From the IMG/VR virus record IMGVR_UViG_2563366859_000002: a stretch of 37,333 nt of DNA; one strand, written 5' to 3'. This stretch comes from a virus (Duplodnaviria > Heunggongvirae > Uroviricota > Caudoviricetes). The position numbers and the translations under genes were made by a program. The notes under the pieces are model-generated. The model searched no databases. It had not been told where the DNA came from and saw only the letters and a list, made by a program, of their open reading frames with translations. Shown here piece after piece: positions 250-5,794 of the stretch; position 1 is the first letter of the stretch; every line of letters begins with the position of its first letter.

Positions 250-3195
250 TTAGTGCTTCCCTTCTATTAAGTCTAACCTAGCTTTTATTCTTTCTATTTC
301 TCTGCGCTGCCATGCCGCCTCGATATAGAATAAGAGATCAGGTCTGACCCCCCATCTAGATCCTGCTGGCGTTATTTCAACGCGCTCAATGATGTCTTCC
401 ATTACCATCACTGGATTATCATCCTCATCAACAATGATGCTCCCGTCATTATCAGTCAGCGGCATTTCCCTTTGGCCAGTAATGACGTCATCATATACTG
501 CGGGATAATCGTCATAGCAAAGAAAGGCATAGCGGCATGTTGTGCTTTCTTCTTCCATGAGTCCGTGAGAAATAAGAACATCACGAAGTTGCTGCGCGAT
601 TACACCATGATGTATCCTCGCCCCTTCTTCCCCCTTTATAGCGACAGCGTTCAGCCATTTATAAGCGATATACCTGACGTCACCCCAGGCATCCAGCAAT
701 TCTTCGTCAGGAGAGACCGGCTCTGTCTTTAATGTTCCGTCACTGGTAACCACAGGATTGGAGCCAAGATAAACTGTCGAGAACCTGTTTCCCGGACCAC
801 CAAGAGCATTTACATTATCAAGATAAGGTTTAACATCTCCGTTCTCAAAAAGATGTTCGAGTGCGTTATATACCGCGCGACGTGGAGTACTGCTTCCGGA
901 ACCATGCAACGTTATCATTGCACCATCTGCTGAAGACGTTGTTTCACCGCCGCTAACGATTAATCTCTGAGCGGTAACATCATCAGACGGTACTTTCTTC
1001 GCAATAATGGCGTAATTACCCTCAAGTTTGACTTCCGCGCGAACTTGTCCTGATGTACCTGCATGGACAGTCAGTGACTGGACGGCAACATCATCTGTGA
1101 AATCAACGGGTACAGGAACCGTCCTCACGCCTGACGTCGACATAAAAGTAGGAAGCGTTCTGTTAGGAGTGGCTCCGTAGACAAAATCCCTTGAAACAAA
1201 TTCTTCCTGTTTAATTTTCACCCTGAAACAATACAAATCAGCCGGGTGACCATCGTGAACATAAGGATATTTTCTGTTGTTATCCCCTATGCTCCATGGG
1301 TTTAGAAAGTCTTCCCCACCGAAAATGTAGTACAGCCAGTTGTCTTTGATACAAACTGAACCAACACCAACCGCAGAGTTAACTATTCCGCCCTGATAAA
1401 TCTGATCAGTAACATTAACCCACTCTACATTATCCAGACTCCACTCATTGACGTTAACTCTGGTCATAAATGTTCTTGGATAATTTCCTGCATAACGGTT
1501 ATCAGGTTCTCCTCCTTCCCACTCACCAAATGCGCGCTCACTGCCAAAAATAATCAGCTCATCGCCAACTTTGGCAAAAGGAAGGTTTGAGTGATGAACA
1601 TTATTTGGGAAGCGAAGAGAATTCCATGATGTACCTAAATCAGAGCTTCTGTGCAATGAACTACCGGGTTGAGTACTTAATGTCCCCCTGGTCGTCAGAT
1701 ACAGAATGCCATCATAATATTTTACACATGGCTCAGATGCATTCGCCTCATATTCTGCAGGTATGCGTCTGCGAACAAAGCTACCAGGAGAACCGAAAGC
1801 ATCAGAGAAATAGAGTATCCCAAGCTCGCGTGGGCCAATATCACCATTATGGTAGCCAACAGCAAAACTGTTATCGCTAATCGTCGCAAAACTGTGAATC
1901 TCAGTAACAGGAGTGCTTCCGTCAACAAAAGAAGGAATAGTTCCAAGACTGGTTTTTCTCCATGGTGACGAGTGAAATGATGTACCAAAACTCCAGTATC
2001 TACCCTCGTTATTCTGATCCACATCCTGGGTATTTTGCGTCGTAACTGTAAAAGTATTTTTATCAATAACAGTAGTCACCGTCATATTCCCGGTAACACC
2101 TGTAACACCAGAGTTTGAGAAGTTGACAAAATCACCAGCAAATAATCCGTGATCAGTAATGCGAATATAAGCGACTTGCTGATTTGCTGCTTTCGTTATA
2201 CCACCATAAACGCGAAGGCTGCGACTCATTGGGCGATCCCACAACTCTGCAACCTGCAGTTTATTTCCGCTCACGGTCCGCGTCTCAATTACAGCAAAAA
2301 GGCGATTTCTGACAACCCCCATACTCATGCAGTGATAGTTAACTGTGGGATAGTTTTCATGTAAATCTGTAAGCCATTCCGGCGTTGTCCAGGTCTTCCC
2401 GTCATCTCCTGAGCGAACCCATGCAACATGGAGGTTATTTACACCATGGCGGTCTCCAGCCATAAAAGGCGCATAGATGACATTGTCATATACAAACGTT
2501 TTATCCTGCGTCCAGGCGTTGTACCACGGTGTATCTGTAATTTTAAATAACTCTCCCTGGATAAAATCTTCAGAAGCATAAAAAAGAGGCTGACCCGGTA
2601 TTCTCTCAAATAAAAAACGAGCATTTTTAAATCGACTGACATCTGGAAGAGTTGATACTTTAAAAGTAAGCCCTCGCCCATCTATCTTTTCACCACCTGT
2701 TGCAACAGAAAGTAATTCTGATAGAGCTGATGTATCATCATGAACACCATCACCAATAGCCCCCCAACCTCTTACATCATAACTGTCTCTCCATCTTGCT
2801 ATCTGAAGTTTTGGGTATTTATTCGCTCCATCTGGGTCTTCTAATTGCTGCCGTAACTGATCAGGATCATACTTCAGCACATTCGGAAAATAGAACTGCT
2901 GTGTACCATACGCATCATAAACAGCCATAGAATGGCCTTGCACGGTTACGAACTTGGCAATCTGTCCGTTATATACCGGATATCCAGCGGCGTTAATGAT
3001 GATTGGTTGCGAAACAGGAACGTGAGAACCATCTTCGTTCTCAACATAGACCTGAATCTGGTTTTCAGGATTTACCGGGTCAGTGTCAATTTTACCGATA
3101 TAAATTTTGCCATTAGCTACGGCTTTAAAAGAACGCGCCATAGTGAAGAGTTGCGAAGGCATACTCACTACAACATTGGCTGTAATGTCTGTCAT
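250..3195 (-). CDS. Tailspike, 981 aa: P22 gp9-like head-binding N-domain, sialidase-like domain with two Asp-boxes (endosialidase-like), C-terminal chaperone-like domain
   Basis: N-terminus [11 protein letters not shown]...KYDPDQ matches P22 gp9; Asp-boxes SGDDGKTW (2389-2412) and SSDLGTSW (1624-1647); S-D at aa 818-819 before a conserved C-terminal domain. Confidence 0.85.
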
Positions 3196-3327: not shown

Positions 3328-3585
3328 ATGATGTACAGCAAATACGATGAGGCGCAGTTCCACTTGAGGCTTACACACGAGTTGCACGCTAAGATTAAGC
3401 AGCGTGCAAAAATGAATAACAGGTCTATCAATTCCGAAATTGTGGCTACGATGGAAGAATCACTCTCCAAACCATCACCTGTAAGCGGGTATCGTGATGA
3501 AGAAGAGAGGCTGGCCTCATTAATCTCGGAACGAGTAAAAGAAGTTGCGGCTGAAATTCTAAGGAAAGAAAAAACCCGCGATTAA
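3328..3585 (+). CDS. mnt: Mnt-like ribbon-helix-helix repressor, 85 aa
   Basis: RHH motif ...NNRSINSEIV... and C-terminus SKPSPVSGYRDEEERLA resemble P22 Mnt; SD GGTGAGG before ATGATG. Confidence 0.7.
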   Translation: MMYSKYDEAQFHLRLTHELHAKIKQRAKMNNRSINSEIVATMEESLSKPSPVSGYRDEEERLASLISERVKEVAAEILRKEKTRD

Positions 3586-3600
3586 GCGGGTTTAGTTTTC
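3565..3600. terminator. Rho-independent terminator between convergent mnt-like and antirepressor genes, strongest on the minus strand
   Basis: Stem AACCCGC/GCGGGTT with a long U-run on the minus-strand side and a shorter one on the plus side. Confidence 0.6.
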
Positions 3601-3611
3601 ATTATAAAATG

Positions 3612-4340
3612 TTACGCCACATTTGAGCCATGTAGCAGGTGTTGTAGTGCTTTAACGCCTTCAGAATTGTAACGGAACGCCTCTACCTGTTTGCTGGAAT
3701 GCGCCGATTTATCCAGGAAGAACTTCCCGTACTGCTCAGTTTTGAGGTTGTTTGCGTTAGCAATGCGACCAATCTTGTTGGCCGTTACTCCAAGCTGCTC
3801 TGCAACCTCCCCTGCTGAGTAGTAATGCTCTTCTATTGCCGGAAGAGGTATTGCATTAAAACCAACAAGCGGGTTGATTATACTTGCTGCCGCTGTCTGC
3901 TTTGCCTCAGGCGCAAGATTTGGCATCAGATCGAACAGATTGGTAACAGCTTCAACCGTCATTTTCAATGTTCGCGCTTGACGATACTCAACAAGTCCAC
4001 TCGCTGATTTACCGCTTTTAATGTGCGCTTCTTGCATACTTTCAAGTTGGTCTACCAGTGAGCGGCGAACGGCTTTTGACTCGCGAGCGGCAACTCGCAA
4101 TGCTTGCTTGATTGACATCTCAATGATAACCATCGAAGTTTTGTTCGCTTTTTGCACTACACTTTTTGTGTAGTGCTCTCCATCCAATTCATCTTCAATT
4201 TTCTCGATGAATTTGTTATTACGAACCTCCGGCTCACCGCACTGTCTACGAGCCTGATTTACCATCTCAAGCAGGCGCTGGCTGTCAATGGTTTTATCCG
4301 TGACAACGGATCCGATGTTTGCTACATTCTTAAAAGTCAT
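3612..4340 (-). CDS. Antirepressor-type regulatory protein, about 242 aa, KilA-C-like C-terminal domain
   Basis: Internal start MTFKNVANIG with SD AAGGAA; C-terminal YYSAGEVAEQLGV...NKIGRIA motif typical of phage Ant/KilAC proteins. Confidence 0.6.
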   Translation of the reverse strand: MTFKNVANIGSVVTDKTIDSQRLLEMVNQARRQCGEPEVRNNKFIEKIEDELDGEHYTKSVVQKANKTSMVIIEMSIKQALRVAARESKAVRRSLVDQLESMQEAHIKSGKSASGLVEYRQARTLKMTVEAVTNLFDLMPNLAPEAKQTAAASIINPLVGFNAIPLPAIEEHYYSAGEVAEQLGVTANKIGRIANANNLKTEQYGKFFLDKSAHSSKQVEAFRYNSEGVKALQHLLHGSNVA

Positions 4341-4410
4341 TAGGCATTCCTTATGTGGTAGTAAGGGTGTGACATAGGCCGCCAGCAGCACACTGGCGGT
4401 TTTCTTTTTG
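4335..4410 (+). ncRNA. Candidate sar-like antisense RNA (about 75 nt) covering the RBS and start of the antirepressor gene
   Basis: Plus-strand promoter-like GTGACA-17bp-TACATT (4300-4328) followed by a strong plus-strand-only terminator at 4379-4410, antisense to the gene start at 4340. Confidence 0.4.
4379..4410 (+). terminator. Rho-independent terminator on the plus strand inside the minus-strand ant region
   Basis: Stem GCCGCCAG/CTGGCGG(T), 7-nt loop, then TTTTCTTTTT; no U-run on the minus-strand reading. Confidence 0.6.
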
Positions 4411-4428
4411 CGCCGTCCGGCGCACCAA

Positions 4429-5055
4429 TCAATGAATCCATTCCTCGCCGCGCAGTTTTGCCAGCATTGGCTGAGCGTTCTTTACGACAAAATTGTTGGT
4501 ATCAAGATTCTTCATTTCACGAAGAAGTGATTTCTTGGTTTCTTCTGACATATAGCGAGTCTCATATGCGATATCGTAAATCCTTCCTGAAAGCTCAGAA
4601 CAAATTTGCTTCATTCCTGGGTAGATGTGTTTGCACATTTGTTGACTCTTCTCCATCCACAATTGTAAGTAGCAGAGATTAACCAGTTCTTCGTCAGTAA
4701 ACTGTTTTGCAATCGGTGAGCATTCTGCCTGCCGATCCAAAATATCCAGCACCCAGCGGCGGAACTCTTTGGCTACCGGAGTGCGAGCAAACATCGCGAT
4801 TAGGTGGGCACCGCGTAGTGAGAAAACTCGCACTTTTTTGCGATAATTTCCTGAGGTACTCACTTCGAGTACCTGAGTCATTCCGGCGCTAAACTCATCG
4901 CTATACTTGTTATAAATCATTGTTACTGCACGACTATTTGCGTATTTAAGTGCAGATGCAATATTAGATGATGTAAACCAAACACCATGCATATCACGGG
5001 TGGGCACCAACTCAACTCCGTGGAAGTTGTAATCTGATTTTGCTACAATATTCAT
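4429..5055 (-). CDS. Bro-N-like domain protein, about 208 aa, possible second antirepressor
   Basis: Internal start MNIVAKSDYNFHGVELV with SD AAGGAA; N-terminal region resembles Bro-N/Ant N-domains (GxWF...A.AL.Y.N). Track ORF N-extension rejected. Confidence 0.5.
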   Translation of the reverse strand: MNIVAKSDYNFHGVELVPTRDMHGVWFTSSNIASALKYANSRAVTMIYNKYSDEFSAGMTQVLEVSTSGNYRKKVRVFSLRGAHLIAMFARTPVAKEFRRWVLDILDRQAECSPIAKQFTDEELVNLCYLQLWMEKSQQMCKHIYPGMKQICSELSGRIYDIAYETRYMSEETKKSLLREMKNLDTNNFVVKNAQPMLAKLRGEEWIH

Positions 5056-5128
5056 GTTAGTTTCCTTGCATACGGTTACTGACATAGAGGCCCGGTTTGT
5101 GTTCGCGCACTGCCGGGCTTCACTATTT

Positions 5129-5296
5129 TTATGTCCTAGCATTCTTCTCTCCAATCAGTCCGTACACTTTTCTCAATTGATAAATAAGTTCCGTGTTGAA
5201 CTGTCGACACTCTTTTTCTCCATTTCTTTCAATCGCCTTCCTTACATCCTCTGGGAAACGAACCTTGCGTTGATACATGTCTTTTGCTTTTTCCAT
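5129..5296 (-). CDS. arc: Arc-like ribbon-helix-helix repressor, 55 aa (absent from the ORF track because under 60 aa)
   Basis: MEKAKDMYQRKVRFPEDVRKAIERNGEKECRQFNTELIYQL...; SD AAGGAG 5 nt before ATG; position first in the ant operon as in P22. Confidence 0.6.
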   Translation of the reverse strand: MEKAKDMYQRKVRFPEDVRKAIERNGEKECRQFNTELIYQLRKVYGLIGEKNART

Positions 5297-5313
5297 CTCC
5301 ACTCCTTAAATAG

Positions 5314-5376
5314 CCCCACTGTGGGGCAATTGAAATTGTCACACCGTGCGTCATTGAAGTCAACCCCACCGTGGGG
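5314..5376. promoter_or_regulatory. Two 13-bp palindromic operators (CCCCACTGTGGGG at 5314-5326; CCCCACCGTGGGG at 5364-5376) in back-to-back divergent promoters
   Basis: Plus promoter TTGAAG(5354-5359)-17bp-CATAAT(5377-5382) has an operator in the spacer; minus promoter TTGACT-17bp-GACAAT has an operator just after +1. Confidence 0.55.
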
Positions 5377-5419
5377 CATAATTTACTTATTGTGAATTTT
5401 TCCTGTTTGGACTAATGGT

Positions 5420-5794
5420 ATGAGTAGAGAAGACCCTCAACTTCGGATTAGGCTTCCTGTTGAATTAAAAAAAATAATTGAAGCGTCATCAAAACAAAAT
5501 AATCGTTCTATGAATGCTGAGATTGTCACTCTGCTTGAGTTGGCGATTCGTGTTTGTCGTGATTTTGGGCCGGAGGATGGTCCTATCGTTCAGCAGTTTA
5601 AAGAACAACTAGATGCGATAAACAGAAAATATGATAAAATCGAGCATGAAAAACTTATACCTCAACTTTTAGAAATCATAGAAAAACAGAAAAAACAAGT
5701 AGATAAACTTATTAGCATGGTTGAAAGATCAATTCCTCTTTCAGAGGAATATAAGCAGAAATATCTTGGTGATGACAACAAAAAACCCACCTGA
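5420..5794 (+). CDS. Mnt/Arc-family RHH repressor with extended coiled-coil C-terminus, 124 aa
   Basis: N-terminus MSREDPQLRIRLPVELKK...NNRSMNAEIV parallels P22 Mnt; divergent from arc, as mnt is in P22. Confidence 0.65.
   Translation: MSREDPQLRIRLPVELKKIIEASSKQNNRSMNAEIVTLLELAIRVCRDFGPEDGPIVQQFKEQLDAINRKYDKIEHEKLIPQLLEIIEKQKKQVDKLISMVERSIPLSEEYKQKYLGDDNKKPT

Follow-up and report, generated by a model that had tools for sequence, protein, structure and literature searches.

In the Escherichia coli prophage IMGVR_UViG_2563366859_000002, analysed here over all of its 37,333 nucleotides (nt; this whole stretch is called the window), the + strand at 4300–4409 is most likely a small cis-antisense RNA gene that would shut off gene 2, an antirepressor-like gene of the minus strand, post-transcriptionally. 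Judged from the comparison of related sequences, the prophage very probably makes an antisense RNA of ~74 nt over the ribosome-binding site (RBS) and the start codon of this gene. Antirepressors decide the induction of a prophage or of a neighbouring prophage, and the sar RNA of phage P22 has long been the standard textbook example of such a gene under antisense control. A system of this kind, a cis-antisense RNA over an antirepressor RBS, is already known; what appears to be new is the RNA family, the target family, the occurrence of this RNA beside a true sar within a single operon, and its behaviour as a portable cassette to which the first 14 target codons belong. Rfam holds no family for the gene 2 antisense RNA, and no description of it was found in full-text literature searches. 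The target gene, its upstream neighbour and the parts of the predicted element are located as follows.

3612–4340, minus strand: gene 2, the target gene, 242 amino acids (aa), antirepressor-like, assigned to phrog_1726 'anti-repressor'
4338–4340, minus strand: ATG start codon of gene 2
4347–4352, minus strand: Shine-Dalgarno (SD) sequence AAGGAA of gene 2, 6 nt upstream of the ATG
4429–5055, minus strand: ant1, the first antirepressor gene, with Bro-N and P22_AR_C domains (PF02498, PF10548; PHROG anti-repressor Ant)
4300–4305, + strand: -35 element GTGACA, overlapping codon 12 position 3, codon 13 (GTC) and codon 14 positions 1 and 2 of gene 2
4320–4328, + strand: extended -10 element, TG at 4320–4321 and TACATT at 4323–4328, overlapping codons 5–7 of gene 2 (AAT GTA GCA)
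4335 to about 4409, + strand: predicted antisense RNA of 74–75 nt, with a putative +1 at A4335, 7 nt after the -10
4376–4409, + strand only: intrinsic terminator, with stem 4376–4385/4393–4402, loop 4386–4392 and T run 4400–4409

Predicted promoter, terminator and antisense RNA at the start of gene 2

The product of gene 2 matches phrog_1726 over its full length (E value 7.3e-101, residues 1–242 on profile positions 1–264) and no Pfam family above threshold; 2109 homologs of the gene were found. Its reading frame is open upstream to a GTG at 4391, inside the terminator loop, so that a longer open reading frame (ORF) could be drawn at 3612–4391 on the minus strand. This longer form is probably not used, because all homologs start at the ATG equivalent to that at 4340, which is preceded by a good SD.

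Relatives of gene 2 were collected from 80 viral contigs and from 40 loci in species-representative genomes, which gave 63 distinct segments of the antisense strand. The conserved first ~14 codons are carried by 60 of them, and the other three are distant relatives without those codons. From this material, 24 representatives were chosen with more than 4 nt of difference over the first 75 nt. The promoter-like site GTGACA-17-TACATT with TG, with 9 of 12 consensus matches, was located by a scan within codons 5–14 of gene 2. The arrangement GTGACA-17-TA[C/A]A[T/G]T with TG is found in all 60 segments that have the N-terminal codons, and in these the -35 hexamer GTGACA is invariant. The -10 hexamer takes the forms TACATT, TAAATT, TAAAGT and TACAGT, always keeping T1, A2, A4 and T6, and the TG is always present. 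Only positions 3 and 5 of the -10 vary, which are the positions of least weight for sigma-70. In 60 of 60 segments, exactly 12 nt separate the end of the -10 from the end of CAT, the complement of the start codon. Promoter and terminator features are both absent from the three segments without the N-terminal codons.

The same bases stand out when the gene is read as coding sequence. Among the 24 representatives, the third positions of codons 2, 5, 6, 7, 12 and 13 have zero entropy, while the other third positions within codons 2–25 range from 0.65 to 1.89 bits. The invariant third bases are the +1 (codon 2), -10 positions 4 and 1 (codons 5 and 6), the T of TG (codon 7) and -35 positions 6 and 3 (codons 12 and 13). 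Codon 12 occurs as GTT, ATT, TCT, GCT, GAT or TTT, coding for V, I, S, A, D or F, and its final T, which places an A at -35 position 6, is fixed throughout. In the representatives codon 6 is only GTA or TTA, and codon 7 only GCA or ACA. Along the entire gene, 20 diverged sequences agree at only 12 of 240 third positions; six of these are the promoter and +1 bases and three belong to Met codons. Selection here acts on nucleotides and not on the protein, because third bases are frozen exactly at promoter positions even where the residue varies, and the pattern is that of a predicted sigma-70 extended -10 promoter on the + strand. Much of the N-terminal sequence in this group of antirepressors would thus be set by the promoter of the opposite strand, an overlap of coding and regulatory constraint that would account for their otherwise puzzling conserved N-terminal motif. 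Synonymous mutations should accordingly be able to uncouple the antisense promoter from the protein.

The terminator stem has 10 pairs, six of them G-C, and a loop of 7, followed on the + strand by the tail TCTTTTTGCG; the T run at 4400–4409 reads TTTTCTTTTT. A G+C-rich hairpin and a directly adjoining U tract are therefore both present on the transcribed strand. When the hairpin is read on the minus strand, the sequence continues as CCTATGTCAC without a T run, so that the hairpin at 4376–4402 is not a terminator for the operon transcript. In a scan of 3 kb, terminator-like sites were enriched (12 versus 2.9 ± 1.6 expected). All 60 segments carry a hairpin and T tract on the antisense strand, 25–40 nt beyond the start codon. 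The consensus helix comprises 9 pairs, with 98.6% of cells paired in 23 sequences, and three pairs show compensatory double changes (8 cells); none of 500 shuffles reaches the covariation score, and controls with the alignment slid collapse. Examples of compensated stems are GCCGATAG/CTATCGGC in Kluyvera, CCAGCAG/CTGTTGG in Proteus and ACCAGCA/TGCTGGT in Xenorhabdus. Taken together, the conservation is of a kind compatible only with a sigma-70 promoter plus an intrinsic terminator, both predicted on the + strand.

A small additional hairpin, GCGCCGTCCGGCGC, is situated at 4410–4423 between the T tract and the ant1 stop codon, without a T run on either strand. It was excluded as a part of the element, being found only with ant1-type flanks and degenerate in Salmonella phage SPN3UB.

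Between the promoter and the terminator, the predicted RNA is complementary to codon 2, the AUG (4338–4340), the SD (through the anti-SD TTCCTT at 4347–4352) and the whole leader of gene 2. Its putative first base, A4335, is the complement of codon 2 position 3 and is invariant in the 24 representatives. The predicted fold has two hairpins, a 5' domain at 4336–4373 and the terminator hairpin, and the homologous RNAs, whose 5' domain likewise carries the anti-SD, are predicted at 63–78 nt with a median of 69. The sequence between the -10 and the terminator diverges freely among relatives, as is expected of a cis-antisense RNA because its specificity comes from complementarity; RNAalifold across the relatives recovered the terminator helix only, the body being too divergent to align for a consensus fold of the 5' domain. 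A + strand ORF was considered as the product of the promoter and ruled out, since only ATG-TGG-TAG occurs between 4335 and the terminator. An initial annotation of this DNA had proposed a plus-strand-only terminator in the 88-bp gap between the two minus-strand genes, a promoter-like GTGACA-17-TACATT inside the antirepressor coding start, and a plus-strand transcript of about 75 nt complementary to the RBS and to the start codon at 4340. The terminator was found as described, with its stem at 4376–4402, its T run at 4400–4409 and no counterpart on the minus strand; the promoter-like site was confirmed at 4300–4328, in a position fixed among 60 relatives, and the complementarity holds for a predicted transcript of 74–75 nt.

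The proposed mechanism can be set out from these features. The message of the Arc-like gene, ant1 and gene 2 would probably be read from a Pant-like promoter near 5335–5363, with gene 2 as its distal part. On the opposite strand, the sigma-70 extended -10 promoter in codons 5–14 would fire at about A4335, and the intrinsic terminator would stop the transcript at about 4405–4409, giving a two-hairpin RNA of ~74 nt. This RNA would pair perfectly with the leader, SD, AUG and second codon of the gene 2 message and so block ribosome binding, and the duplex might also trigger cleavage. By analogy with P22, the convergent operon promoter, when active, probably interferes with the antisense promoter (PMC2629481, PMC13397905). 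The antisense RNA would consequently act mainly once the Arc-like and Mnt-like repressors turn the operon down, and in lysogens. What the sequence itself shows is where the parts lie, that promoter and terminator are conserved in a strand-specific way, and that the predicted RNA is complementary to its target; RNA production and translational repression we infer from it, and the timing is suggested by the analogy.

Weighing of the antisense reading against other explanations

Several results weigh against the proposal that the element is a sar-like antisense gene. Promoter-like matches in 3 kb numbered 6 versus 5.3 ± 2.2 expected, which is background level; as a single-sequence match the promoter is no better than chance, and it is convincing only through comparison. 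The predicted RNA folds with -25.1 kcal/mol and a z score of -2.8, which is modest against the -4.7 to -6.2 of sar RNAs. In 23 of 25 cases the antisense strand gives the more stable fold (mean -22.8 kcal/mol, against -18.9 for its complement); this asymmetry is only suggestive, given the relatedness of the sequences and the general folding advantage of G+U-rich strands. The antirepressor function of gene 2 is that of a PHROG annotation label, and both the making of the antisense RNA and the repression by it are deduced. The sar family models, moreover, passed over the element. The Rfam sar model RF00262, with a gathering threshold of 43 bits, scored its positive controls at 97.8 bits (P22), 83.9 bits (the related locus L012) and 48 bits (SPN3UB); at the gene 2 element it gave no match at the gathering threshold in the whole window and none at E ≤ 10 in 4000–4700. 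A covariance model of sar, R2, which was built from the P22, L012 and SPN3UB sequences with the window excluded, found no match at 4335–4408 at E ≤ 10. Conversely, R1, a covariance model built from 23 homologs of the gene 2 antisense element, matched neither P22 sar nor the sar homolog of the window described below. By any of the tests applied, the predicted element is not of the sar family, and the analogy is one of architecture, not of homology. No relevant match to any Rfam family was obtained at the gathering threshold across the whole window. Weak matches to SgrS, NsiR4 and symR (E ≤ 10; 4000–4700 and 4950–5350) were dismissed as terminator-hairpin noise.

The convergent arrangement inside the operon could also point to transcriptional interference, in which polymerase from 4300–4328 would collide with or occlude the operon polymerases, the short RNA being a by-product and the terminator a protection for ant1. 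The position of the terminator directly before the upstream gene in every relative and the poor conservation of the RNA body would suit such a process. However, the predicted RNA always spans the SD and AUG, and the -10 is fixed 12 nt from the start codon, neither of which is required by interference alone; the 5' domain folds better on the antisense strand, and P22 sar, with the same layout, has been described as base-pairing with the ant mRNA (PMC13397905). We consider interference unlikely as the explanation in its own right; the two mechanisms are not exclusive, and pairing could well be accompanied by interference. The conserved feature might also be a structure of the sense mRNA leader, either a hairpin hiding the SD and AUG or an element for processing or stability of the ant1–gene 2 message, with codons 2–14 conserved for translation initiation. 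The complement does fold, at -19.5 kcal/mol, CCUUA pairing with UAAGG around the SD and GUCA with UGAC around the AUG. Yet on the sense strand, which is systematically less stable, A-C mismatches take the place of three G-U pairs of the antisense fold, and the U tract is on the wrong strand for a sense-strand function. The invariant bases, moreover, are two hexamers with a variable 17-nt spacer and form no helix, and we regard this explanation as very unlikely.

The chance frequency of promoter-like matches leaves room for the idea that the site at 4300–4328 is coincidental and that the terminator is only a backstop, stopping + strand read-through from the 3334–3585 gene or other antisense transcription that enters ant1 and arc. 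A + strand gene does lie upstream, and its bidirectional terminator at 3572–3593 could leak. Against this stand the six third-codon positions (+1, -10, TG and -35) that are frozen while their neighbours vary, even where the amino acid changes, and the fact that the unit travels with genes in loci of quite different surroundings, which together make a mere backstop highly improbable. The presence of three ribbon-helix-helix regulator genes in the locus could further suggest that the invariant bases are an operator bound by an Arc/Mnt-type repressor instead of a promoter. But GTGACA, N17 and TGnTAnAnT are without dyad symmetry and match the sigma-70 spacing and the hierarchy of its key positions, and the conserved bases are 1 kb away from the divergent promoters, the region in which operators of this kind would be looked for; an operator here is scarcely credible. 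The cis-antisense RNA gene over the start of gene 2 is the explanation that we prefer, and the remaining sections are written on that footing.

A cassette carried by many prophages

The architecture of promoter, leader and terminator is conserved, down to the nucleotide sequence, in prophages of Escherichia, Salmonella, Klebsiella, Serratia, Pantoea, Citrobacter, Kluyvera, Buttiauxella, Proteus, Yersinia and Xenorhabdus. In the 37-kb window, the only match of R1 below E = 1 is at 4335–4408, and the weaker ones (E > 6) are at chance level. Outside its training set, R1 found matches in SPN3UB and in assemblies of Proteus, Providencia, Erwinia, Photorhabdus and Advenella, and it offers annotators a ready covariance model.

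The element also behaves as a module. Over 138 nt, up to and including the hairpin, the window and the locus L012 are identical; beginning with the T tract they are unrelated. Among the 60 segments, 16 classes of flank occur beyond the T tract, and the mosaic junctions fall directly after it. On the other side, the unit fronts genes with differing N-domains, namely the phrog_1726 type, Rha (PF09669) and ORF6N (PF10543). The Rha genes with the unit were found in Intestinirhabdus (L095), Yersinia (L100), Citrobacter (L106) and Chimaeribacter (L107). The ORF6N gene is gp22 of Salmonella phage SPN3UB, which has a variant cassette (L003, 2420–2540) with TCGACA-17-TACATT, TG and the same terminator hairpin. 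In this variant the -10 ends 27 nt from the start codon, and the predicted RNA would cover ~7 codons.

These observations lead to a proposal that we advance tentatively and hold to be somewhat doubtful. The first ~14 codons, the leader and the terminator could form a portable 'antisense lock', a module transferred by recombination to antirepressor genes whose N-domains are unrelated. Operons with several antirepressors would then have one specific lock for each gene, sar for the first and the gene 2 RNA for the second. The leader is nearly identical across many E. coli, Salmonella and Klebsiella prophages, and the RNA of a resident prophage could therefore act in trans, silencing the matching antirepressor of an incoming or co-resident phage. 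If so, the lock would provide an RNA-based layer of inter-prophage immunity against anti-repression.

Operon context and comparison with sar and other phage antisense RNAs

The window belongs to a P22-like (Lederbergvirus-type) E. coli prophage with an immI-like "ant moron" adjoining the tailspike ORF. The tailspike ORF (250–3195, minus strand) is the CUS-3 K1 endosialidase at 98.9% identity. CUS-3 was nevertheless ruled out as the source of the locus, since in spite of this match its ant moron differs. The closest deposited phages for the ant moron are Escherichia phage JEP4 and Klebsiella phage phiKp_30, and its JEP4/phiKp_30 type, unlike that of CUS-3 (L126), points to a mosaic exchange right at the tailspike boundary. 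No non-coding RNA is annotated in the JEP4 and phiKp_30 records, nor among the listed features of RefSeq E. coli prophages with the locus. One strain with the locus is E. coli 55989 (NC_011748.1, at about 2,671,500–2,673,000). The other features around gene 2 and ant1 are these.

3334–3585, + strand: Mnt/Arc-type ribbon-helix-helix gene, 83 aa, convergent with gene 2
3572–3593: bidirectional terminator common to the 83-aa gene and gene 2, from a sequence scan
5041–5131, + strand: true sar homolog over the ant1 start, with TG at 5041–5042, -10 TACAAT at 5044–5049 and +1 at G5056
5129–5302, minus strand: Arc-like ribbon-helix-helix gene, first of the operon (Pfam Arc, E 0.0012; PHROG Arc-like repressor families)
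5335–5363, minus strand: candidate operon promoter (Pant-like), TTGACT-17-GACAAT, from a consensus scan only
5354–5382, + strand: divergent promoter-like site facing the 5420–5794 gene and overlapping the Pant-like candidate
5420–5794, + strand: divergent Mnt/Arc-like gene with an Arc domain

The ant moron thus holds three ribbon-helix-helix genes, at 3334–3585 (+), 5420–5794 (+) and 5129–5302 (minus), and the Pfam Arc match of the last fails the curated cut-off. Between the ant1 stop codon (4429–4431) and the gene 2 ATG at 4340 the gap is 88 bp. A sequence scan of this gap found no minus-strand terminator and no consensus promoter, and ant1 and gene 2 are for this reason probably co-transcribed.

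At the start of ant1 the operon carries a second convergent unit. Its promoter, TGcTACAAT, lies in ant1 codons 2–4, and its +1 falls directly after CAT (5053–5055). The predicted RNA (5056–5128) has a 5' stem-loop and a long terminator hairpin, with a T run (5126–5130) that abuts the stop codon of the Arc-like gene (5129–5131), and it folds with -33.3 kcal/mol (z -6.2). It aligns with P22 sar and is matched by R2 with 29.2 bits (E about 3e-4); Rfam reported it neither at the gathering threshold nor at E ≤ 10 in 4950–5350. The initial annotation had proposed a sar-like RNA over an antirepressor start and likened it to P22 sar. A sar-like RNA is supported there, with the qualification that the gene starting at 4340 is the second antirepressor and that the canonical arc-ant position is occupied by the true sar homolog at 5056–5128, which that annotation had missed; the likeness holds for design and fails for family, in view of the silence of RF00262 and R2 and of the missing cross-match of R1.

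In most related loci, R2 matches the start of the first antirepressor and R1 that of the second. In L012, for example, a P22-type Ant with a canonical sar (83.9 bits) is followed by the gene 2-type cassette. The common layout, as predicted by these models, provides each of two antirepressor genes with a convergent antisense RNA gene of its own. The gene 2-type RNA is common across prophages of the Enterobacterales, typically in tandem with a true sar in such two-antirepressor operons. A different arrangement was seen in Xenorhabdus santafensis (L115), where an Arc-like ORF (1101–1307), a sar-like R2 match (1308–1380, minus strand) and an R1 match (1439–1506, minus strand) succeed each other. 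With no first antirepressor between the units, this locus may be a deletion remnant that left two antisense units back to back.

Known phage RNAs resemble the predicted gene 2 RNA to differing degrees. Lambda OOP, P22 sas and other lambdoid cis-antisense RNAs are also short, terminator-ended antisense transcripts in regulatory regions of temperate phages (PMC7067206, PMC13397905), but they differ in target (the cII 3' end, or sieB) and in position, and none lies over an antirepressor RBS. Some P22-like ant morons seem to be without arc and must control ant differently, as was pointed out in the 2008 epsilon34 paper (PMC2629481). The RNA of the window shares its layout most closely with P22 sar, which is described as base-pairing with the ant mRNA (PMC13397905). 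Both are small cis-antisense RNAs directed against the operon from an extended -10 (TGnTAnAnT) within the first antirepressor codons, and both have ~70 nt, two hairpins, a 5' domain with an anti-SD, an orientation-specific intrinsic terminator and complementarity to the RBS (PMC2629481, PMC13397905). In P22, used as the positive control, sar lies at the arc-ant junction, with TGcTATACT in ant codons 2–4, a +1 next to CAT, 68 nt and two hairpins. The element of gene 2 agrees, by sequence and prediction, in promoter placement, in complementarity to SD and start codon and in a two-hairpin RNA of ~70 nt with a terminator, whereas it lies between the two antirepressor genes ant1 and gene 2 and not within an arc-ant intercistronic region. 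P22 sar starts at -1, while the gene 2 RNA would begin 6 nt into the coding sequence and include the complement of the AUG; its target is of the phrog_1726 family without a Pfam domain, and it co-occurs with a true sar in one operon.

Within the window, the gene 2 RNA and the sar homolog share operon, strand and design; two short strings also recur in both, TTGCTACA(A/T)T at the -10 and, just ahead of the terminator, TGACATAG. The sar homolog differs in targeting ant1 (Bro-N/P22_AR_C), in a +1 directly next to the AUG and in its alignment with P22 sar. Given their shortness, TTGCTACAWT and TGACATAG do not suffice as proof that the predicted RNA and sar have a common ancestor. TGnTAnAnT lies opposite the N-termini of three antirepressor families, M-T-F-K-N-V-A in gene 2 (4320–4328), M-N-I-V-A-K in the Bro-N type (5041–5049) and M-N-S-I-A-I in P22 Ant (L004, 1931–1939). 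Another RNA that keeps a phage antirepressor untranslated is c4 of P1 and P7, which belongs to immI of P1 and controls icd-ant. In contrast to the units described here, c4 does not come from a convergent promoter; it is released by processing of the operon transcript of its own strand and pairs with sites downstream of itself. The solution known from sar thus seems to exist in a second RNA family, one without detectable similarity to sar itself.

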